This document shows, piece by piece, positions 24,383-32,564 of a DNA stretch of 38,916 bases. Positions within the stretch are counted from its first letter, which is position 1; the number at the start of each line of letters is the position of its first letter. The position numbers and the translations under genes were made by a program. The notes below the pieces were generated by a model, which saw nothing but the letters and a program-made list of their open reading frames with translations, had not been told where the DNA came from and searched no databases. Origin of the DNA: a virus. The stretch lies in IMG/VR virus record IMGVR_UViG_3300045988_113856. One strand, given 5' to 3'.

Positions 24383-25567
24383 TCACTGATTTAGGTATTT
24401 TTCGAATTGTTGATGGTTTTCTTTCTTTTTTGCCGGAGAGATTTCAGCATAGATTTGAGTGGTTGAAATGTCTTTATGCCCAAGATCATCTTTGATGTCA
24501 TCAAGGCTTAATCCTGCCTCACGCATTAAAACGGCATGCGTGTGTCTTAAATCATGGATACGGATGTGAGGAAGTCCAGCCCGATTGGTGATGCGATTAA
24601 AAGCACCGGTAGTTGCTCGAGATCGGAGCGGTTGTCCAAACTTGGCATCAGACGAATAGGTGAAGACAAAATCGTTATTGTGGCTAGTAGAAAACCGAAA
24701 ACCTTGTACATTGCCGTGACTGAAATGGCGCTCATATTGTTGTTGAAGAAGATCATTTACTCGAGCGGTCATGTATTCGGTTCTCTTAGAGCTTAATGTT
24801 TTGGGACGATCAAGCGCTATTTTGCCAGCGTTTGATCCAGTTTCAGCACGATAGATTCGTGTTGCATTGACTGATAAGGTATTTTTGTTGAAGTCAATGT
24901 CTGACCAGCGAAGAGCCATGGCTTCACCCACACGAAGCCCGCAGTCAATCAGCGTCACAAAGAATGATAGCCACATGGGCTCTTTATCTTCTTCAGCTGC
25001 TTCTATAAAAGATCCAACTTGATCTTTTGTCCAAAAGTGAAGTTTTTTGGAATTGTCTTTAGCATACGCACTGAACTCGACACCAACGGTAGGGTTTTTG
25101 GTAATGTAACCAATTGCAACGGCTTTTTTTAACGCATTGTGCAATGTTCCATTGATGAGCTTTACTGTGTTAAGAGACAAGCCATCATTGAATAGACTGC
25201 TGATGAACTCCTGATGTTCCTTAAGCGTGTATTTGGCCAGTCGAATATCCCCAATTTTGGGGATAATGTATTTCTTGAGGTTATATCGATAGATGATCAT
25301 GGATCCCTCTTTTACATTAACCTTAAGCTTGGTGATCCACTGATTAAGATAATCAGCCATTAAAATTCTTTCAGTTTGGTAGTGAGAGTGGCCTCTGATT
25401 ATTTCGGACTCAGCTAAAGTTGCTTCTTGCTGGGCTATTTTTTCGGTTGGAAAACCGCGCCGATGGATCTTTATTTCTTTTCCTGTCTGCGGATCAACAC
25501 CAGCGAATATATAGAATTCCCAGGCCTTTTTGCCATCTTTTAGTTTATATGAGCTAATTGATGCCAT
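24383..25567 (-). CDS. int: Tyrosine integrase
   Basis: 394 aa. ALRWSDI (Arg), HDLRHTHA, LGHKDISTTQIYAE (catalytic Tyr). N-terminal SAM-like arm-binding region. Confidence 0.95.
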   Translation of the reverse strand: MASISSYKLKDGKKAWEFYIFAGVDPQTGKEIKIHRRGFPTEKIAQQEATLAESEIIRGHSHYQTERILMADYLNQWITKLKVNVKEGSMIIYRYNLKKYIIPKIGDIRLAKYTLKEHQEFISSLFNDGLSLNTVKLINGTLHNALKKAVAIGYITKNPTVGVEFSAYAKDNSKKLHFWTKDQVGSFIEAAEEDKEPMWLSFFVTLIDCGLRVGEAMALRWSDIDFNKNTLSVNATRIYRAETGSNAGKIALDRPKTLSSKRTEYMTARVNDLLQQQYERHFSHGNVQGFRFSTSHNNDFVFTYSSDAKFGQPLRSRATTGAFNRITNRAGLPHIRIHDLRHTHAVLMREAGLSLDDIKDDLGHKDISTTQIYAEISPAKKKENHQQFEKYLNQ

Positions 25568-25737
25568 GATATCGCACTCCTTTTGAACTCTTAGAGCTTG
25601 TAATTCAAACGTATGTTCGTTATGTCCTTAAAATAAAAGCCTCATTAAAAACAAGGCTCCGTTGGTTCTAAATGGATAGATTCTTTTGGTAGACCGTTTG
25701 CAACTTTTATATTATGATTGCATGGAAAGGTGGTGGC

Positions 25738-25944
25738 ATGATGAAGGCTTTCAAAATCCAAGACGCGGTTAAACTTTATTCGTCGCTTAAAAAAACTTAC
25801 GAACGTGAAGACTCTAAAATTCAGAAAATGCAAGAAGAGATTGATCGTGAAATGAAGAAAGCTTCTCTGATCACCAAACCAAGTGCGGAACACCAAGGAC
25901 CTAAACGACATTTAAAAATACATAGAGATAGGCCGAATTCTTAA
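25738..25944 (+). CDS. Possible small coiled-coil ORF (68 aa)
   Basis: RBS GAAAGGTGG before the ATG. The 3' end overlaps the 3' end of the convergent 338-aa gene by 33 nt. No recognisable motif. Confidence 0.3.
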   Translation: MMKAFKIQDAVKLYSSLKKTYEREDSKIQKMQEEIDREMKKASLITKPSAEHQGPKRHLKIHRDRPNS

Positions 25945-26928
25945 AGAATCCTCTTTTTGTGAAATGCCAAAGTTAGTCAATGCGATTGATGACAAGTAAC
26001 TTGCAATCGCACCAATATCACGGGGTGCCAATTGAGAATTTGTAAGAGTTTGGTGTTTCCAATTTGTATTATCTGATTTGTTTTCCACGATTCCCATTAT
26101 ATAAAGGGTTCGTGGATTTTTTTGTAGCATTTGAAGTTGTGATGGGCTTAATCTAAAAAGAGACTTTTGTGCAAAAACAACGGTTTGCTCAGTGGAAACA
26201 ATGACACTATTCGGCATACTTTTTGAAAAGAAGTTCACCATTGCATAAACACTTCTAAAATTCTCTTGCGAGCTTTTGTCCTCTGTTATCTTTTGTTCTG
26301 CTTTTTGGATTTTCTTCTTCATGTCATCTATTTGCATTTTCGCGTTGCTGGCATTCCTTGTCCTTGCTTGGATAACTCTCAGCTGTTTTTTGTAACCATC
26401 TAACTTTTCTTCTGAAACATTATCTGTAGACAATCTCAGCACTGGATCAATAATTTCAGGGTTGGTACCGGCTTCAAGAGAATCGAAGTCGTATAAGGAA
26501 AAGCTATCTTTGTAAAGTACCAAGTCTCCTGGTTCCGCATTCTCAACAGGAACAAATTGTTTTTTTAGATAGCCTTCAAGGATCTCGACCCCGTAATCAC
26601 CGTATACTATATTCTCTGAATACTGATGCCTATTATGTGTTGAACTTTCGTCTGCCATAGAGTGGCTATCTTCGGCCGATCCTGAACCATTTGCTATCCC
26701 TGGGACTCCGCCGCTAATTTTTGCGGATTTTCTTCCACCTTTAGTTGCGACCTGAGTCAGTATGGAGGTTTTCTCATTCATACGCGTAGTCAGGGTGCTC
26801 AAGCCTTCGTCAAACTGGGCTAATAAGGAATTCATTAAGTCGGTGTCAACATAGATATACTCTCTCAGTTTCTTTTCGGCTTCAGCCTCATCATGCAGAT
26901 TATGGTCTTCCATTTTATTCTCCTTCAA
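25912..26928 (-). CDS. 338-aa orphan protein, no recognisable catalytic motif (defence candidate by position)
   Basis: RBS GAAGGAGAAT. AT-rich. N-terminal REYIYVDTDLMNSLLAQFDEG, Gly/Ser-rich linker, central coiled-coil (KMQIDDMKKKIQKAEQKI), conserved-looking C-terminal beta-rich part. Confidence 0.8.
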   Translation of the reverse strand: MKENKMEDHNLHDEAEAEKKLREYIYVDTDLMNSLLAQFDEGLSTLTTRMNEKTSILTQVATKGGRKSAKISGGVPGIANGSGSAEDSHSMADESSTHNRHQYSENIVYGDYGVEILEGYLKKQFVPVENAEPGDLVLYKDSFSLYDFDSLEAGTNPEIIDPVLRLSTDNVSEEKLDGYKKQLRVIQARTRNASNAKMQIDDMKKKIQKAEQKITEDKSSQENFRSVYAMVNFFSKSMPNSVIVSTEQTVVFAQKSLFRLSPSQLQMLQKNPRTLYIMGIVENKSDNTNWKHQTLTNSQLAPRDIGAIASYLSSIALTNFGISQKEDSLRIRPISMYF

Positions 26929-26964
26929 ATAGTTTAATTTTTAGTTTTGCTTCATCGCCCACGC

Positions 26965-26990
26965 AGCCTTCCGCGGAAGGCTATTTCTTT
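26965..26990 (+). terminator. Perfect 18-nt palindrome agccttccgcggaaggct + T-rich tail
   Basis: Lies between two minus-strand genes, but the U-tract is on the plus strand. Confidence 0.35.
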
Positions 26991-27023
26991 GTCTGAAAAC
27001 TAGCCCCCCTTTATGAAGTCGTA

Positions 27024-27227
27024 TTATTGCATCTCTCTAACCATCATCATGAGCACGCCGATAATGATGAAAACGGCTGCCAACCAGAGGCTGCTGCCGG
27101 GTTTGTCTGGGTCAATGAGCCAATATACCCAACGGTGTTTGTGGCCAAATAAGGCTAAGTAGACGCCTATAAGAACAATGATGAGGCCAATGAAGTGTGC
27201 CTCACTTAATGTAACTGGACCATTCAT
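27024..27227 (-). CDS. Small two-TM membrane protein (67 aa)
   Basis: Two hydrophobic spans (FIGLIIVLIGVYLALF, LWLAAVFIIIGVLMMMV). RBS GGAGA. Starts 23 nt after the upstream stop. Confidence 0.65.
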   Translation of the reverse strand: MNGPVTLSEAHFIGLIIVLIGVYLALFGHKHRWVYWLIDPDKPGSSLWLAAVFIIIGVLMMMVREMQ

Positions 27228-27250
27228 AAGTGCATCTCCAAGAACTGAGC

Positions 27251-27676
27251 TTAGATTTCGTTTAGCTTGCTGAACTCGATGTCATTGTTGTATCTGATCT
27301 TGACGGTTAGTGGGTTGCAACGGATGATGACGGGTCGATCATACTGTAACGATTTTTGAAAAGAATTGAGGCTTTCCGTAAAGCTTGGTATGGCCTCCTC
27401 AGCGGTCAATACAACGGCCTTTGCACGCAATAGCAACGATGAGTGGTGTAGCTCATTGAAGCAGTAAACAGCCACCACAGGCTTCTCTAGGACGTTTTGA
27501 ATGGTAGTAGTGTCGCGATCAGTGTAAAAAAGGATTTCTTTCAGCGATCGGTGTGATTTAAGTGGTGTTAGCGAAACTATATTAGGAAAACCGGTATCGG
27601 TATCAAGCGTAGCTACCTGCATAACGGTACACTCTCTTAACAGTATATCGGCCTGCCTGATCGTAGAATTTGCCAT
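27251..27676 (-). CDS. PNPOx-like / general-stress-protein-26-like split-barrel protein (141 aa)
   Basis: MANSTIRQADILLRECTVMQVATLDTDTGFPNIVSL...ILFYTDRDTTTIQNVLEKPVVAV fits the pyridoxamine-5'-phosphate-oxidase-like pattern. RBS TAGGAG before ATG 27676. Confidence 0.65.
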   Translation of the reverse strand: MANSTIRQADILLRECTVMQVATLDTDTGFPNIVSLTPLKSHRSLKEILFYTDRDTTTIQNVLEKPVVAVYCFNELHHSSLLLRAKAVVLTAEEAIPSFTESLNSFQKSLQYDRPVIIRCNPLTVKIRYNNDIEFSKLNEI

Positions 27677-27756
27677 AAGTAATACTCCTATCTTAACTAT
27701 TAATTTGATACGAGTAGCTATGTTTTTAACCGTTGATGGTGAATCAAATTCATTTT

Positions 27757-27765
27757 TGCTATAAT
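27757..27765 (+). promoter_or_regulatory. Extended -10 promoter element TGCTATAAT
   Basis: Match to TGnTATAAT, 45 nt upstream of ATG 27810. Confidence 0.4.
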
Positions 27766-27809
27766 TAGATGAATATTGTTCATTAGCGACTAGAAGGGCA
27801 GTGACTAAA

Positions 27810-27977
27810 ATGGAAAATCGTGTTGAGATAAAAGAAGGACATGTTTTTGTAAATGGAACCGAAATTAACCTGGTCAATGATATACAGCTTCATCCTGCGC
27901 TGAACGACACAACGCAAGTTCAACTGAGTTTTAAAGCTACGAGCCTGGATGTAGTTTATCCCGGATCTCGGCGGTGA
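27810..27977 (+). CDS. 55-aa ORF, paralogue of ORF 35747-35935 (below the ORF-track cutoff)
   Basis: Hand translation gives MENRVEIKEGHVFVNGTEINLVNDIQLHPALNDTTQVQLSFKATSLDVVYPGSRR. Aligns with MNSLRIQNGKVFVNGIEVGQVEKIHFKAEANDPVEVEMKW..GLDVSVY. Confidence 0.5.
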   Translation: MENRVEIKEGHVFVNGTEINLVNDIQLHPALNDTTQVQLSFKATSLDVVYPGSRR

Positions 27978-28010
27978 TGACGTTCTGATTGATTAGTACG
28001 AAATTCTTTA

Positions 28011-28019
28011 TGATATAAT
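28011..28019 (+). promoter_or_regulatory. Perfect extended -10 promoter element TGATATAAT
   Basis: Lies 37 nt upstream of ATG 28056. TTGATT -35-like hexamers sit upstream. Confidence 0.5.
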
Positions 28020-28055
28020 CAGTGAAAGATAACTAGACATTCACATAGAGGAGCG

Positions 28056-28280
28056 ATGATGATGAATGAAGACAAGCTAGGTTATAGTTATTCATATGAT
28101 TTGAAAGATGGAATTGTCAAGGTGAAGGATTTTGTGAAATATTTAGAGTCTTTACCCAGTGATTCCACAATCAGAATTCAGGGTATTTCAGATGATCGTC
28201 CGGCTGTTATTGATGACAATGTCTATTTTGAAAAAAGTAGTGGGCAATTGGTTATCCAACCTGATTCATTATCTATATGA
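28056..28280 (+). CDS. 74-aa hypothetical protein, convergent with and abutting the HEPN-like gene
   Basis: RBS AGAGGAG. Its stop TGA (28278-28280) is directly adjacent to the stop of the minus-strand gene. Confidence 0.6.
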   Translation: MMMNEDKLGYSYSYDLKDGIVKVKDFVKYLESLPSDSTIRIQGISDDRPAVIDDNVYFEKSSGQLVIQPDSLSI

Positions 28281-29036
28281 TCACCAAAAAACTCTGTGGT
28301 GGATATCCATGATTATTTTGAAGCTTCGATTGAATTCTACGTCTAGTTCTTTATCCTTATGTACCACTTGTATAGCTGACAGAGTGTAAAGTTTTCCTAC
28401 AAGAACTGCGAGCTCATGCTCTTTTTTGTTGCTAATAATTGCCTCATAGTTATCCGTGGCAATCGCATCCTGATAATTTGAGATGGGACAGTACCCATCG
28501 TCGTCAATCCAGCTAATTTGGAAAAACTTGACGACTTGGTAAACATTCTTAATTACTTCTTCGCAAAGACCTTTTGTTGGGATTAAAGTCCCGTGAATAA
28601 CTCTGTTGCGTTTTTCTGTGGAATCGTACATTTTGTTCAACATAGGAATTGCTGATTCTCCAAATAGTAGTAGGGAAATCGTTGCAAACGAAGCAATAGA
28701 TCTTTCTGAATACTTGATAGCGTGTGATTTATCAATGATTTTGTCCATTGGTTTGTGGTTGTTTGTTGACCAAAAGTAAGCTTTGATAGCTGTGTTTCTG
28801 AATTTTTCCAAGCTCGTAACTGCGCTTAGATAGCACTCATAGTATTCTTCATCATCATACGCTCGTAAAGCATTTTCAAATATCGGAACATACAGAGGGG
28901 TGCGTAATACTGCATGAAATGTATGACCCCTAGGACATATAAATTTCAGTGATTCGTCATCAGTTACTTCCGCGACAGCACTAGATTTATAATCGCGGCA
29001 TTCGGCACACATTGTTTCAATTTTCGTGTCAGACAT
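28281..29036 (-). CDS. Zn-ribbon + HEPN-like (R-x4-H) protein; candidate abortive-infection RNase/toxin
   Basis: C10xxC13...C34PRGH38 knuckle. EKRNRVIHG motif (R143..H148, nt 28593-28610). All-helical-looking remainder. AT-rich. Confidence 0.75.
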   Translation of the reverse strand: MSDTKIETMCAECRDYKSSAVAEVTDDESLKFICPRGHTFHAVLRTPLYVPIFENALRAYDDEEYYECYLSAVTSLEKFRNTAIKAYFWSTNNHKPMDKIIDKSHAIKYSERSIASFATISLLLFGESAIPMLNKMYDSTEKRNRVIHGTLIPTKGLCEEVIKNVYQVVKFFQISWIDDDGYCPISNYQDAIATDNYEAIISNKKEHELAVLVGKLYTLSAIQVVHKDKELDVEFNRSFKIIMDIHHRVFW

Positions 29037-29077
29037 CTCCTTACATTGTACTGACCGTGTTTACTTGGTTTGCTTAT

Positions 29078-29103
29078 TAGCCCTCGCCACCGGGGCTATT
29101 TTT
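29078..29103 (+). terminator. Plus-oriented intrinsic terminator between two minus-strand genes
   Basis: tagccc/gggcta stem, 9-nt loop, then T5. Confidence 0.45.
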
Positions 29104-29112
29104 GTGCCCAGC

Positions 29113-29131
29113 AAAAGCCCCAAGTAGGGGC
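29113..29131 (-). terminator. Terminator of the cI-sie operon
   Basis: gcccc/ggggc stem, loop aagta, followed on the minus strand by TTTT. Lies 12 nt after the stop of the 29143 gene. Confidence 0.5.
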
Positions 29132-29142
29132 CTGTAAAAGGG

Positions 29143-29844
29143 CTATTTCATATTGGACTGGGTTTTCCCGCTTAAAGCATCATTTGTAAAGGTCACGTTG
29201 AAGTTGGAACCCAGATCACCTTTTACACCAGATGTATAACCGGCCACAACATTCTTTTGACCGCCGATAAGGCTTTCATTGTAGTAGTCGGGTTGTCCCC
29301 ATTTTGAGGTGAAGTCAGCGTATTTTGTACCGTCCTGGAACGCGTTGAAATCTGCCAAAGTAATCTTTTGCTTGCGGCCTAACTTGAAGCCAGTAAGATT
29401 CTTGCTGAACGCATTTCCGTCGGTAAAGGAAACAATTACGTTAGCTCCCCAGCCACCCTCAACATTAGTCCACGTTACAAGATCAGTCTTAACTCCATTT
29501 GTGGTACTGCTCGAGGTAGAGGACGGGTTCCCAAACTGGGCTTTTAAATCATCTAATTTGGCACCACCATTGCCGTTTTCCATCAAATCACCCAATTTGA
29601 TGCTGTCAAAGTCTGCGCGAGTAATCTTGCCGCTTTCCTTTTTTGATGTGTTTGAGGACGTTTTGTCTGTCTTGCTAACTGTGGTTTTTTCTGTGGATTC
29701 GCTGCTTGATTTGCCCTTATTGTTGAGGCCACCACCAATTGCTGCTACCACAACAATAACTAATAGCCAAAACCATACGCGCTTGTAAAAAGGCTTCTTT
29801 ACCTTATATTGCTTGCCGTCTGTACCCATTACCTTTTTTGCCAT
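29143..29844 (-). CDS. Membrane-anchored extracellular protein with two DUF3862-like repeats (superinfection-exclusion candidate)
   Basis: N-terminal TM (VWFWLLVIVVVAAIGGG), Ser/Thr-rich linker, two repeats KIT(R/L)ADF..... ending in ..N(V/F).V.FT(D/N). Confidence 0.8.
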   Translation of the reverse strand: MAKKVMGTDGKQYKVKKPFYKRVWFWLLVIVVVAAIGGGLNNKGKSSSESTEKTTVSKTDKTSSNTSKKESGKITRADFDSIKLGDLMENGNGGAKLDDLKAQFGNPSSTSSSTTNGVKTDLVTWTNVEGGWGANVIVSFTDGNAFSKNLTGFKLGRKQKITLADFNAFQDGTKYADFTSKWGQPDYYNESLIGGQKNVVAGYTSGVKGDLGSNFNVTFTNDALSGKTQSNMK

Positions 29845-29899
29845 TTTTGATTTCCTCCGTCCAATTCAGCTTTTATAGTCGTCAGTATTTGGACTGATT

Positions 29900-30478
29900 T
29901 TATTTAACAGTCGGTAAGTCATTGCGTTGCCAATATTTCGTGGCAAAGGCAGGAACATTGCCATCAGAGAATCCTTCCAAATTCAAATCATTCAGTCTTG
30001 ACCCGTCTAGGTCGGCTGTCATGGCCTTTAGCTGATGTGTATTACCTCCTGCGTCATCGAATGGGTAAGTCACCATGACAGCTATATTTGCAAAATCATT
30101 GCCTTTTGATTTCTTGAATGCCTTCCATACTGAAGCAATATCCTCATGCATTAATTTAACCGCTGATTTGTCGTCCCAACCGCTGTCTTCTTTAATGGTT
30201 ACAAGAACGGTTTTTGATTTGGGGTCATCATAAACACCGCCTACTTCAGTGACTTTCAAATCAGGCTCATAGTGCTTCAACATCGCCTTTACTGATCTGT
30301 CACTATTCAGCTTATATATTCTTGTAGACGGAGAAGCTGATTCTTTTTTGAACTCATTGACACAACTTGAAATGCCAACAACTAGTAGAACAATGACGAC
30401 AAATACTGTCCAAAACTTCCATCTTTTCCAAAAAGGCTTTTTAATATCTCGATGAGATCTCCTAGTTTCGTGTTCCAT
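29900..30478 (-). CDS. Lipoprotein-like / membrane-anchored protein (superinfection-exclusion candidate)
   Basis: TM followed by the lipobox-like VGISSC. Starts 15 nt after the cI stop, so co-transcribed with cI. Confidence 0.8.
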   Translation of the reverse strand: MEHETRRSHRDIKKPFWKRWKFWTVFVVIVLLVVGISSCVNEFKKESASPSTRIYKLNSDRSVKAMLKHYEPDLKVTEVGGVYDDPKSKTVLVTIKEDSGWDDKSAVKLMHEDIASVWKAFKKSKGNDFANIAVMVTYPFDDAGGNTHQLKAMTADLDGSRLNDLNLEGFSDGNVPAFATKYWQRNDLPTVK

Positions 30479-30493
30479 TTTTAATCCTCCAAT

Positions 30494-31177
30494 CTAAATG
30501 CACTCGCTTGTTGCGTATAAAAACTTCCCAATTATTTTGAAGTCTTGAATCCCGTCTTTGGGGAATACATATGGTTTAAAAGATGGGTCCCATGATGATG
30601 GCTCAAACAGAACTGCGAGCGACGTTTCCCTATATCGCTTGATCGTAGCGCTTTCTGAGTCGATCATAACGGCAACTATATCACCGCTTTCTGGTTCTAA
30701 ATCTTTCGAGAAGACCGCTATATATCCGTTGGGGATTTCTCGATTCATGGATTCGCCGTTAACTTGAAGCGCGAATAGGTTCTTTGCTCCGTATCTTTTA
30801 GCAAAGCTCTTGGTAACATTTATCTGACCGATAATATCTTGTTCAGCCCATTTTGCAACGCCAGCTTGGATTTCTCCATAAACCATAACCGGCTGGTCGG
30901 CCACTTCGCTTGATACGGGAATAGCATTGCTAGGAATATCGCTTGACTTTTGAATGTAACCAGCCATTTTCATCAATTTAGTAGTGCTGACATTGTAAAG
31001 TTTTGCGAACTCTTTTAATGTTTCAGCAGATGGCGTGAATGGCTTGCCATGACTATTAATACCTTTTTCGGCTTGAGCTATTGCCGCATGGCTGATTCTC
31101 CCGTGTGAACGTTGGGAGGCTTCACGAAGCGACATGGTACCGCGCAACTGGCGCAAATAATCGCCTAATTCTGACAT
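30494..31177 (-). CDS. cI: CI-type repressor (XRE HTH + S24 LexA-like autopeptidase)
   Basis: N-terminal HTH MSLREASQRSHGRISHAAIAQAEKG. C-terminal VNGESM (Ser) ... ATIKRY (Lys). RBS AGGAGGTTT. Confidence 0.9.
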   Translation of the reverse strand: MSELGDYLRQLRGTMSLREASQRSHGRISHAAIAQAEKGINSHGKPFTPSAETLKEFAKLYNVSTTKLMKMAGYIQKSSDIPSNAIPVSSEVADQPVMVYGEIQAGVAKWAEQDIIGQINVTKSFAKRYGAKNLFALQVNGESMNREIPNGYIAVFSKDLEPESGDIVAVMIDSESATIKRYRETSLAVLFEPSSWDPSFKPYVFPKDGIQDFKIIGKFLYATSECI

Positions 31178-31306: not shown

Positions 31307-31552
31307 ATGAGCAACAACTTGCGTCATTATCGCCGAGAAAAAGAGATGTCTCAGTTAGAACTAGCAAAGCAAGTTGGCGTCACTCGCTTAACCATATCCA
31401 ATATTGAAACAGGAAAAACAAAGGATCCGGCGACTTCAATTACGTTGAGAATTTCTGAAATTTTGGGTCATAGCGTTGATGCTATTTTTGGTAGCGAAAA
31501 TGTAAACCTTGATAAACACATTTCCGCCCAGCGAGAGGAGGCAGTCAAATGA
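31307..31552 (+). CDS. cro: Cro-like XRE HTH regulator
   Basis: Divergent from cI. HTH MSQLELAKQVGVTRLTISNIETGK. RBS GGGAGGAA. Confidence 0.8.
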   Translation: MSNNLRHYRREKEMSQLELAKQVGVTRLTISNIETGKTKDPATSITLRISEILGHSVDAIFGSENVNLDKHISAQREEAVK

Positions 31553-31806: not shown

Positions 31807-32355
31807 ATGAAAGCAACAATTAGTAGCCCTTTGAATAGATTCGCTACTAGAACCAACACGCCACAGAAGGTGATCGCTTATGCAGCAAAATTAGGGCGCT
31901 CAACGATCAACAATTATTTTCATGGAACCCCCATTAGAGCAAATGAGGCTACTGACATTGCCAATTCGATGAATGACAGCGAACTAAGCTATGAAATGGC
32001 TAACTTGTTTCTAGGAATCCCTAAACTGTTTAGCGGTGACGGAATATACCACGATTTACGAGGTCTTTTATTCACCGATAAACGAGAAGAAGACGAGGAG
32101 AAAGCTTCTTTCATCAAGTACGACATCGAGGGCCTTGCTAATGACCCCAACTTTACACGCGATGACGCTAAAAACTTGAAAGCATACGCATTCGAAAAAA
32201 TGGATAGCACAGTCGCAGATCTAACCGAACTAAATGCTATTTGCAAAATGCTAGGCATCTCAATCATGGATCTTTTCAGTGAAAGGCTCCCGCATTACCA
32301 GAAACTTCATTATATGAGGAAGGATGAGCAGGCATGGAACAAGGATTCACATTGA
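31807..32355 (+). CDS. Early HTH-domain protein (regulator or antirepressor-like)
   Basis: RBS AAAGGAAGTGG before ATG 31807. HTH-like QKVIAYAAKLGRSTINNYFHG. Confidence 0.6.
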   Translation: MKATISSPLNRFATRTNTPQKVIAYAAKLGRSTINNYFHGTPIRANEATDIANSMNDSELSYEMANLFLGIPKLFSGDGIYHDLRGLLFTDKREEDEEKASFIKYDIEGLANDPNFTRDDAKNLKAYAFEKMDSTVADLTELNAICKMLGISIMDLFSERLPHYQKLHYMRKDEQAWNKDSH

Positions 32356-32564
32356 TTGATGTCGCTAAACCAAAAAAGCAGCGTAAGCCATTCAAACCCA
32401 AGGAGTGGTGGGCGCCCAAGGATGTTATGGAACATTATCAGGTTTCAGCGGCAACAGTTAGTCGCTGGAAGAAAAAAGGTGCTCCATTTGTCGGTCCCGG
32501 TAAGACACAACGTGTTGAGCCAGAAAAGATGGAACGTTGGTTTGCACGTCAGCAGGGGGTATAG
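32334..32564 (+). CDS. Small DNA-binding protein, excisionase-like HTH
   Basis: VMEHYQVSAATVSRWKKKGAPF resembles Xis/MerR-type winged HTH. RBS GAGGAAGGA. Confidence 0.5.
   Translation: MEQGFTLIDVAKPKKQRKPFKPKEWWAPKDVMEHYQVSAATVSRWKKKGAPFVGPGKTQRVEPEKMERWFARQQGV

Follow-up and report, generated by a model that had tools for sequence, protein, structure and literature searches.

Hotspots of prophage-borne defence genes are known from P2/P4 and from the central regions of mycobacteriophages. Among described systems, the closest to the genes considered here is Tha/Ith, a 'noncontiguous operon' of the Staphylococcus aureus prophages 80alpha, phi11 and phiNM2: tha-1 of 80alpha, a gene under the control of the cI promoter, encodes a HEPN RNase that carries an R-N-x3-H motif and that a minor tail protein activates, and ith-1, once annotated as xis, overlaps tha-1 in antisense and has a constitutive promoter, its product inhibiting Tha and preventing autoimmunity on induction (PMC11087260). 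The 80alpha record places int, ith-1 (plus strand, 66 aa) and tha-1 (minus strand, 301 aa) next to one another, the last two overlapping by 64 nt. AbiV of Lactococcus (abiV1/abiV2) is also a HEPN RNase, which acts by abortive infection and has an RNA antitoxin encoded upstream (bioRxiv 10.1101/2024.05.05.592566). In the Dodola system, one protein is reported to carry a DUF6414 domain and is found with the ClpB-like protein DolB (review 10.1101/2024.10.26.620412). The lactococcal and streptococcal superinfection exclusion (Sie) proteins Sie2009 and Ltp are encoded between int and the repressor gene, have a hydrophobic N-terminus and are membrane-associated (PMC7693887, PMC3952083). Here, these systems are compared with the interval that separates the integrase gene from the repressor gene (positions 25568-30478) in a stretch of viral DNA of 38,916 nucleotides, the IMG/VR virus record IMGVR_UViG_3300045988_113856, hereafter called the window.

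The explanation towards which we lean, with some reserve, is that this interval is a lysogeny-operon defence hotspot that would carry two effector-inhibitor pairs of the Tha/Ith kind, together with two membrane proteins that resemble Sie. It would represent the variable cargo of the cI-side lysogeny arm of a Pleetrevirus-type Lacticaseibacillus prophage, built from self-contained cassettes that would be exchanged at intergenic hairpins. What appears to be new, judging from the sequences, is the presence across prophages of Lactobacillales of two conserved and hitherto undescribed pairs, each combining a putative effector gene with a small antisense gene in an arrangement like that of Tha/Ith. 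The interval contains nine open reading frames (ORFs) in both orientations and is bounded on the left by int, which encodes a tyrosine integrase of 394 aa (24383-25567, minus strand), and on the right by the gene of a LexA-like repressor, cI (30494-31177, minus strand), the product of which combines a helix-turn-helix (HTH) domain with an S24 LexA-like peptidase (TIGR00498 lexA at 5e-14). The nine ORFs could be grouped into five units: a gene for a DUF6414 protein with orf68; the genes of a peptide with two transmembrane segments (2TM) and of a PNPOx-like protein; the gene of a Zn-ribbon-HEPN (ZnR-HEPN) protein with orf74, plus orf58; the gene of a DUF3862 membrane-anchored protein; and that of a second anchored protein. 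PHROG families are matched by the products of 68, 67, 141, 338, 233 and 192 aa; orf74 has no match among PHROG families. In NCBIfam, the window cargo proteins retrieve nothing and cI alone is matched, by the lexA model. The first-pass annotation, made from the window alone, had proposed eight or nine ORFs at these places, among them a 2-TM peptide, a PNPOx-like protein, a Zn-ribbon-HEPN protein and two membrane-anchored proteins, and each of these calls is borne out by the data given below. Its description of the 338-aa protein as an orphan does not stand, as this protein has a Pfam match to DUF6414, and its statement that zero to two genes are usual between int and the repressor gene is not valid for this phage group, in which the median is 7 ORFs.

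A megablast search with 24383-31177 retrieved exclusively temperate phages of Lacticaseibacillus/Lactobacillus, first R26.26 at 99% and then R24.2, JNU_P10, R10.1, R9.1, PLE3 and iLp84, most of which are classified as Pleetrevirus. Six sequenced relatives have an integrase 98.7-99.7% identical to that of the window, yet the interval matches theirs only in parts. A larger sample was obtained by scanning viral contigs with the integrase and taking 9 kb of upstream sequence, which gave 35 IMG/VR loci (L019-L054 minus L053; loci are designated hereafter by such numbers), the integrase identity being at least 98% for 34 of them and 94% for one. ORF calling and protein clustering revealed that the gene orders of these loci and of the window all differ from one another (36/36). 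The distance from the repressor gene, or that of its ImmA partner, to int could be measured in 35 cases (the window and 34 loci, L047 having no integrase cluster call) and ranges from 1142 to 7394 bp (median 3734), so that the 4.9 kb of the window belong to the upper third of interval lengths and are unexceptional. The intervals contain 2-10 ORFs each, which fall into 69 protein clusters, including 28 singletons. The sole near-constant members are the gene of the PNPOx-like protein (29/35 loci) and that of the 2TM peptide (27/35). The proposal of the first-pass annotation that the int-cI interval is a variable hotspot is thus upheld, since gene order differs everywhere behind a near-identical integrase and, far from one gene set being conserved in all relatives, turnover is extreme. 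We know of no earlier analysis of this kind for the int-repressor slot of Pleetrevirus.

Pairwise BLASTN against the six sequenced relatives locates sharp and recurrent breakpoints at 25641/25644, 26967/27006, 27773/27824, 29105-29113 and about 29895, which coincide with intergenic hairpins. The left breakpoint, 25641/25644, is common to all cargo variants. In R9.1, position 25641 is joined straight to 29113, with removal of 3.5 kb and a junction in a shared AAAAGCC microhomology; in JNU_P10 and R10.1, the DUF6414 cassette (25642-27005) is absent and 25641 is joined to 27006; the hairpin at 26965-26982 is also a breakpoint relative to PLE3 and iLp84. These data suggest that cassettes are exchanged by recombination at terminator-like linkers. 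The cassette junctions at 25634-25644, 26965-27006 and 29105-29117 lie within or beside terminator hairpins. The immunity region is likewise exchanged among phages that share the integrase, a single LexA/S24-type cI being found in 8 loci including the window and an HTH repressor with an ImmA/M78-like metalloprotease being found instead in others. In the complete genome L017, a prophage with this integrase adjoins pgi (glucose-6-phosphate isomerase), which gives the neighbourhood of attB.

When representative cargo proteins of the relatives were compared with PADLOC models, several recognised defence systems were found in the same slots: PD-Lambda-1 (3e-137, also PLE3 gp32), the B subunit of PD-Lambda-5 (2e-91) beside an OLD/PtuA-like ATPase, the SIR2/STALD-like PDC-S25 (4e-115), PDC-M24B (8e-58), PDC-S47 (2e-22) and a SngA-like protein (7e-18). 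Base composition also sets part of the island apart. Relative to 32 backbone ORFs (mean GC 46.0%, standard deviation 2.0, minimum 41.0%), low GC is limited to two cassettes, 25568-26964 (38.6%) and 27701-29100 (37.6%), the large genes of which lie 3.4-3.8 standard deviations under the backbone mean. Among individual genes, GC reaches 33.8% in orf74, 36.7% in orf68, 38.2% in the ZnR-HEPN gene, 39.0% in the DUF6414 gene (z -3.4), 39.9% in the gene of the 192-aa protein, 43.9% in the DUF3862 gene and 44.1% in the PNPOx-like gene. The intervening segment with the 2TM and PNPOx-like genes is backbone-like (44.4%). An AT-rich stretch had been announced from 25.9 to 29.0 kb; it exists as these two cassettes and is interrupted by that segment. 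Likewise, of the windowed GC and codon-usage profiles that had been advised, the former deviates in the two cassettes and the latter is uninformative, the likelihood of synonymous codon usage failing to separate cargo from backbone. Together, turnover, deviating GC and the defence systems found in the slots of relatives agree with the view of the first-pass annotation that the interval holds defence or fitness cargo, functions being predicted here from sequence.

The first putative effector is the ZnR-HEPN protein, of 251 aa, encoded on the minus strand at 28281-29036 and assigned from a family alignment, AlphaFold and Foldseek. An exhaustive HMMER search recovered 195 family representatives; a word-indexed search gave just 2 clusters. 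In an alignment of 72 sequences, C34, H38, E77, R143, N144 and H148 are invariant, and C10 and C13 are conserved in 99%. The protein has a C-x2-C...C-x3-H knuckle pair followed by K-R-N-R-V-I-H-G, which is the HEPN Rx4-6H motif (R143-N-R-V-I-H148, that is, R143-N-x3-H148). AlphaFold run with this alignment gave a pLDDT (predicted score in the local distance difference test) of 91.3 and a model in which four N-terminal strands precede a helical bundle; the single-sequence model was uninformative (pLDDT 35). The top Foldseek matches of the model in the PDB are HEPN proteins, namely AbiV (9bj7/9bj6), 2q00 (prob 0.97, TMt 0.69), 2hsb (TMt 0.68), Csx1 and Csm6'. Furthermore, 5 of the 72 family members match Pfam HEPN_RiboL-PSP and some match the PADLOC HEPN models of Csx1/Csm6. 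Sequence searches of the PDB with the 251-aa protein or its family profile returned nothing informative, a fold search of BFVD gave no meaningful matches, and Pfam detects a nucleotidyltransferase domain, as expected for HEPN-MNT, in none of the island ORFs. With its catalytic motif and the all-alpha HEPN fold of its model, the 251-aa protein is, as modelled, a member of the HEPN superfamily, and it is predicted to act as a metal-independent RNase effector. Conservation is poor over residues 176-251 (occupancy 0.65), which may form a region of specificity or partner binding.

Relatives of the ZnR-HEPN protein, at about 20-40% identity, occupy two positions in prophages. The first is located after the lysin gene, in an orientation opposite to that of the lysis genes (metagenomes and Enterococcus gallinarum; L007-L012 and L015), and the second between the repressor gene and int (L013, L014, L016-L018, L068 and L069). 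The post-lysin location, at the opposite end of the prophage, constitutes a second cargo hotspot. In an unrelated prophage (L069, 1796-3884), a short DUF6414 protein of 209 aa, a ZnR-HEPN protein and its partner are encoded in one cI-int interval, which indicates that the two effector families co-occur more than once.

The partner in the window is orf74 (28056-28280, plus strand, 74 aa), which is convergent with the ZnR-HEPN gene, the two stop codons being adjacent. An opposite-strand ORF of 52-85 aa abuts the 3' end of the HEPN gene or overlaps it by 0-16 nt in 10/12 lineages, spread over Lacticaseibacillus and Enterococcus and over the int-cI and post-lysin slots. A hidden Markov model built from five partners from outside the window found orf74 as its sole match among 651 six-frame ORFs (E 0.001; next 1.8), and the partner of L069, which was not in the training set, matched at 3e-11. 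By tblastn, orf74 was detected in 10/11 of the hotspot loci that have a HEPN gene of the family and in 0/25 of those that lack one. The partners share the pattern L(I/V)xxLxxLPxxxx(V/I)x(V/I)xG...D(R/G)P...(V/I)Y(F/Y)(D/E)K, and their dN/dS is 0.15-0.35, with a pN of 0.11 at a pS saturated at 0.74; they therefore encode proteins that are under purifying selection. Sequence and profile searches found no Pfam or PDB relatives of the orf74 family. By analogy with Ith, orf74 is a candidate for the cognate inhibitor. A second small plus-strand gene, orf58 (27801-27977; 55 aa when started at the ATG at 27810; phrog_8265 at 2.6e-9), lies nearby. It was considered as a conserved member of the module and rejected, as it is confined to 4 loci, all of which have the 251-aa HEPN subtype. 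In L043 and L046, at about 7.6-8.0 kb in locus coordinates, an ORF of 68-75 aa with a weak match to the partner family (E 0.02) lies beside the DUF6414 gene and orf68 and is unaccompanied by a HEPN gene; it may be the remnant of a replaced cassette.

The second putative effector is the 338-aa protein (25912-26928, minus strand; phrog_16607 at 4e-144), which belongs to DUF6414 (Pfam PF19952, 1.3e-14, 55.1 bits vs a cut-off of 25). Its gene overlaps by 33 nt at its 3' end with orf68 (25738-25944, plus strand, 68 aa; phrog_24244 at 1.8e-47), which lies antisense to it. In the hotspot, orf68 accompanies the DUF6414 gene in 8/8 loci and occurs nowhere else; in L043 and L046, the pair is found in another slot that is away from int. 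Other prophages of lactobacilli (L060-L064) encode DUF6414 relatives at 47-55% identity, each time in the last gene before int, and an antisense ORF of 54-68 aa abuts or overlaps every one of them. The pairing is kept at about 23% identity, in Streptococcus pneumoniae phage IPP24 and Lactobacillus reuteri phage LR1, where Pfam confirms the DUF6414 domain. In the record of LR1 (MH837542.1, 1787-2644), the DUF6414 protein is designated 'recombinase', which is probably a mis-annotation, and the abutting antisense ORF of 54 aa is unannotated. The conserved C-terminus of orf68, PKRxLK(I/V)H, falls in the overlap with the C-terminus of the DUF6414 protein, RPI(S/A)MYF; dN/dS of orf68 is 0.22 as a whole and 0.32 outside the overlap. 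This small gene is a candidate for a cognate inhibitor or regulator. A ClpB-like domain was found neither in the neighbours of the DUF6414 gene in the window (orf68, int and the 2TM peptide) nor in the relatives L060-L066.

A generic scan for promoters and terminators gave nothing above shuffled sequences, and a targeted analysis of motifs and hairpins was used instead. The perfect extended -10 sequence TGNTATAAT occurs at only 3 sites in the 38.9 kb, of which 2 serve small plus-strand ORFs: one copy (TGCTATAAT, 27757-27765, plus strand) lies 36-45 nt upstream of orf58, and another (TGATATAAT, 28011-28019, plus strand) lies 37 nt upstream of orf74 and is followed by a GAGGAG ribosome-binding site. 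In front of orf68, a weaker sigma70-like promoter (25686-25718) and a strong ribosome-binding site, GGAAAGGTGG, are found. Four hairpins of the terminator type were found in the island. On the minus strand, one with an 11-bp stem and a T run separates the cargo from int (25660-25636, dG -10.2, z -2.9). Two others, on the plus strand, lie past the 5' ends of the effector genes: that at 26965-26982 (7-bp stem followed by ATTTCTTTG, dG -10.9, z -2.0), beyond the DUF6414 gene, is oriented so that it would stop antisense transcripts starting at orf68, and that at 29078-29098 (7-bp stem followed by TTTTTGTGC, dG -10.7), beyond the ZnR-HEPN gene, so that it would stop those from the orf58 and orf74 promoters. 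In L007, L015, L016, L017 and L061 too, a terminator in this antisense orientation precedes the large gene. A further hairpin with a U-tract, GGCCCCUACUUGGGGCUUUUG, follows the DUF3862 gene on the minus strand (about 29133-29112, dG -12.8, z only -1.0) and is possibly a partial terminator inside a transcript running in the lysogeny direction. The first-pass annotation had credited the units of the island with extended -10 promoters and terminators of their own; this holds for the promoters of orf58 and orf74 and for hairpins in both orientations, but not for the minus-strand genes, which have no evident promoters.

The last two genes before cI encode proteins for which hydropathy gives a single N-terminal transmembrane (TM) segment each. 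The first (29143-29844, minus strand, 233 aa) has its TM segment at residues 18-43, followed by a Ser/Thr-rich linker and a DUF3862/BLIP-like ectodomain (Pfam DUF3862, 1.8e-31; PDB 3d4e, 3e-12), and is found in 11/35 loci; its residues 1-70/80 match PHROG families of Sie proteins. The second (29900-30478, minus strand, 192 aa; phrog_8263 at 1e-66) has a TM segment at residues 18-44 and an uncharacterised ectodomain, and is found in 9/35 loci. Over its first 61 residues, the DUF3862 protein shares 90% identity with iLp84 gp31 (L002, 8910-9515), a DUF4352 protein with another ectodomain, which suggests, at the level of sequence, a shared anchor on which ectodomains have been swapped. Both proteins are candidate Sie-like factors.

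Taken as a whole, the life of this cargo can be pictured as follows by analogy with Tha/Ith of 80alpha, expression, RNase activity, inhibition, triggers and exclusion being inferred. In the lysogen, the minus-strand effectors would be made at a low level, and the ZnR-HEPN protein would be a latent RNase that halts the cell upon a trigger from a superinfecting phage. The small plus-strand genes, with their own strong promoters, would encode the cognate inhibitors, and the antisense transcripts that start from them would cross the effector gene up to its dedicated terminator. On prophage induction, or on infection by a relative that has the same small gene, the inhibitor would prevail and self-targeting would be avoided. 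The two anchored ectodomain proteins would act in the envelope as superinfection-exclusion factors.

Several observations count against this explanation. The effector genes on the minus strand have no convincing sigma70 promoter directly upstream, and the hairpin after the DUF3862 gene could stop read-through from cI. The rule on terminator orientation fails in L010, L013, L062 and L064; as it holds in most but not all modules, it is retained only as a tentative one. The Foldseek matches of the ZnR-HEPN model have weak E-values (at least 0.65), and its assessment as a homologue of Tha-1 led to rejection, as hhalign gave a probability of 4% with the motif alone aligned. Homology of orf74 or orf68 with Ith was rejected as well, Ith-1 belonging to DUF7938, which neither small ORF matches. 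PADLOC, the use of which had been recommended by the first-pass annotation, finds known systems in the same slots of relatives but has zero matches to the window's own proteins, and its DolA/Dodola models match no prophage DUF6414 protein tested; the assignment of the window proteins to defence therefore proceeds by association and from family, partner and signal evidence. The Sie assignment is based on position, topology and matches to the Sie PHROG families phrog_8545 and phrog_4980 that cover residues 1-70/80 only (3e-12 and 4e-10), i.e. the anchor. The 2TM and PNPOx-like pair, being near-constant, is better regarded as part of the lysogeny backbone than as cargo. Lastly, the literature on related phages contains no transcript, protein or phenotype data on these genes and no analysis of them.

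Both effector/small-gene pairs could instead be toxin-antitoxin (TA) addiction modules by which the prophage is stabilised. The toxin would then be the HEPN or DUF6414 protein, the antitoxin would be either the small protein or its antisense RNA, and any anti-phage effect would be incidental. The 3' overlap of the gene pairs resembles that of type I TA systems, and the strong promoters of the small genes, set against effectors without clear ones, fit an excess of antitoxin. HEPN RNases are frequent TA toxins, and AbiV is paired with an RNA antitoxin (bioRxiv 10.1101/2024.05.05.592566). However, the HEPN protein is tolerated without a partner in two lineages, L012 and L068, which implies that it is not constitutively toxic, as holds for Tha-1. 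The partner is convergent with the effector gene and not co-transcribed with it as in type II TA systems, and it is protein-coding under purifying selection, unlike type I and type III antitoxins. Moreover, the slots in which the modules sit are taken in relatives by bona fide defence systems. On this evidence, addiction modules seem an unlikely, though serious, explanation of the pairs.

It was also considered that the island might be mainly host-fitness cargo concerned with stress and redox, with the envelope and cell wall or with RNA turnover, its turnover reflecting neutral shuffling of morons. The two near-constant genes have the following products. The PNPOx-like protein (27251-27676, minus strand, 141 aa, the start at 27676 being preferred; phrog_12237) matches PNPOx_N of Pfam (2e-7, 31.9 bits vs a cut-off of 28.1), belongs to an FMN-binding split-barrel family and resembles relatives of general stress protein 26 (2hq7, a weak match); the 2TM peptide (27024-27227, minus strand, 67 aa; phrog_10368) has hydropathy segments at residues 3-31 and 42-67. 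Kinship of the PNPOx-like protein with stress proteins, that of DUF3862 with a putative beta-lactamase-inhibitor protein and the want of PADLOC matches among the window proteins would all suit fitness cargo, but known defence systems in the same slots of relatives, an invariant HEPN catalytic motif and an effector with an antisense small gene laid out as in a proven defence and self-immunity switch (PMC11087260) would not, and we regard this possibility as improbable.

The remaining proposal, that orf68 is an excisionase gene and that the remaining small ORFs of the plus strand are spurious or mere markers of regulatory antisense RNAs, can draw on the classical position of annotated xis genes of many Gram-positive phages, small and convergent beside int (PMC11087260), and on the location of the conserved C-terminus of orf68 in its overlap with the DUF6414 C-terminus, but is very hard to sustain, as orf68 occurs in only 8/36 loci despite their shared integrase, tracks DUF6414 even away from int (L043 and L046) and coexists with a separate excisionase-like HTH gene, and as the small ORFs have dN/dS values of 0.15-0.35, with orf74 homologues recognisable as protein across genera. 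That excisionase-type HTH gene (32334-32564, plus strand, 76 aa) belongs to the early region and is remote from int; its position matches that of the 'excisionase and transcriptional regulator' of iLp84, and it is likely the true xis. The cro gene (31307-31552) is divergent from cI and has a TTGACA-17-TATTAT promoter.

Should the pairs work as proposed, the Tha/Ith principle would extend beyond Staphylococcus and beyond one protein family. More speculatively, and with more doubt than confidence on our part, the association of an effector encoded on the lysogeny strand with a small protein gene in antisense might be a general and portable self-immunity switch that unrelated effectors of Firmicutes prophages have adopted independently, the candidates being the ZnR-HEPN family, DUF6414 proteins without DolB and perhaps PDC-S47-like proteins accompanied by a small TM ORF in antisense. 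In that case, two new defence/anti-defence pairs would be at hand in ZnR-HEPN/orf74 and DUF6414/orf68, the partners would constitute a new pool of anti-defence proteins, and dedicated terminators on the antisense strand would confine interference to one cassette, making the cassettes plug-and-play. In L024, L028, L030, L031, L035, L039 and L051, genes of PDC-S47-like proteins and their kin, about 256-323 aa long (clusters c56/c60/c62 with c30), are followed by a convergent TM ORF of 52-62 aa; this would be a third type of effector in the same layout. As a genomic signature for the discovery of effectors and their inhibitors, we suggest a cargo gene whose 3' end meets a small, strongly promoted ORF convergent with it. 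Strains of the Lacticaseibacillus casei group are probiotics and dairy starters, and their resident prophages partly determine how sensitive they are to phages. A hotspot in one widespread prophage lineage is a place to seek new resistance genes, and the 35 variants with isogenic flanks provide a natural panel for comparison.

Compared with the known systems, the interval resembles hotspots of the P2/P4 type in its conserved flanks, its swapped cassettes and the recognised defence systems of some variants, and differs from them in its lineage (Pleetrevirus of the L. casei group), in its slot between int and the repressor gene and in its junctions at terminator hairpins. As with Sie2009 and Ltp, the anchored proteins are encoded between int and the repressor gene, are hydrophobic at the N-terminus, have an extracellular C-terminal domain and vary among related phages, but they are larger (192-233 aa), and one has a BLIP-like ectodomain and the other an uncharacterised one. 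The 338-aa protein shares the DUF6414 domain with Dodola; unlike the latter, it has no adjacent DolB, its partner is an antisense ORF of about 68 aa, and its family is borne by prophages, between the repressor gene and int. AbiV, the top Foldseek match of the ZnR-HEPN protein, is a HEPN RNase that serves abortive infection in a lactic acid bacterium and needs a small adjacent genetic partner; however, abiV2 works as an RNA and is encoded upstream, on the same strand, whereas orf74 is downstream, antisense and protein-coding with a ribosome-binding site, and AbiV has no Zn-ribbon and its PADLOC models do not match the ZnR-HEPN protein of the window. Tha-1 has an N-terminal domain of unknown kind followed by a C-terminal HEPN domain, in contrast to the ZnR-HEPN protein, in which an N-terminal Zn-ribbon, a central HEPN domain and a variable C-terminal part of 75 aa succeed one another. 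In the layout of the locus, the likeness to Tha/Ith is close: a HEPN gene with the R-N-x3-H motif is placed between int and cI, in the orientation of cI, and a small gene of the opposite strand (about 66-74 aa) with its own promoter overlaps or abuts its 3' end. By prediction, the likeness would also extend to the outcome, a defence of the lysogenic state that would be switched off on induction.

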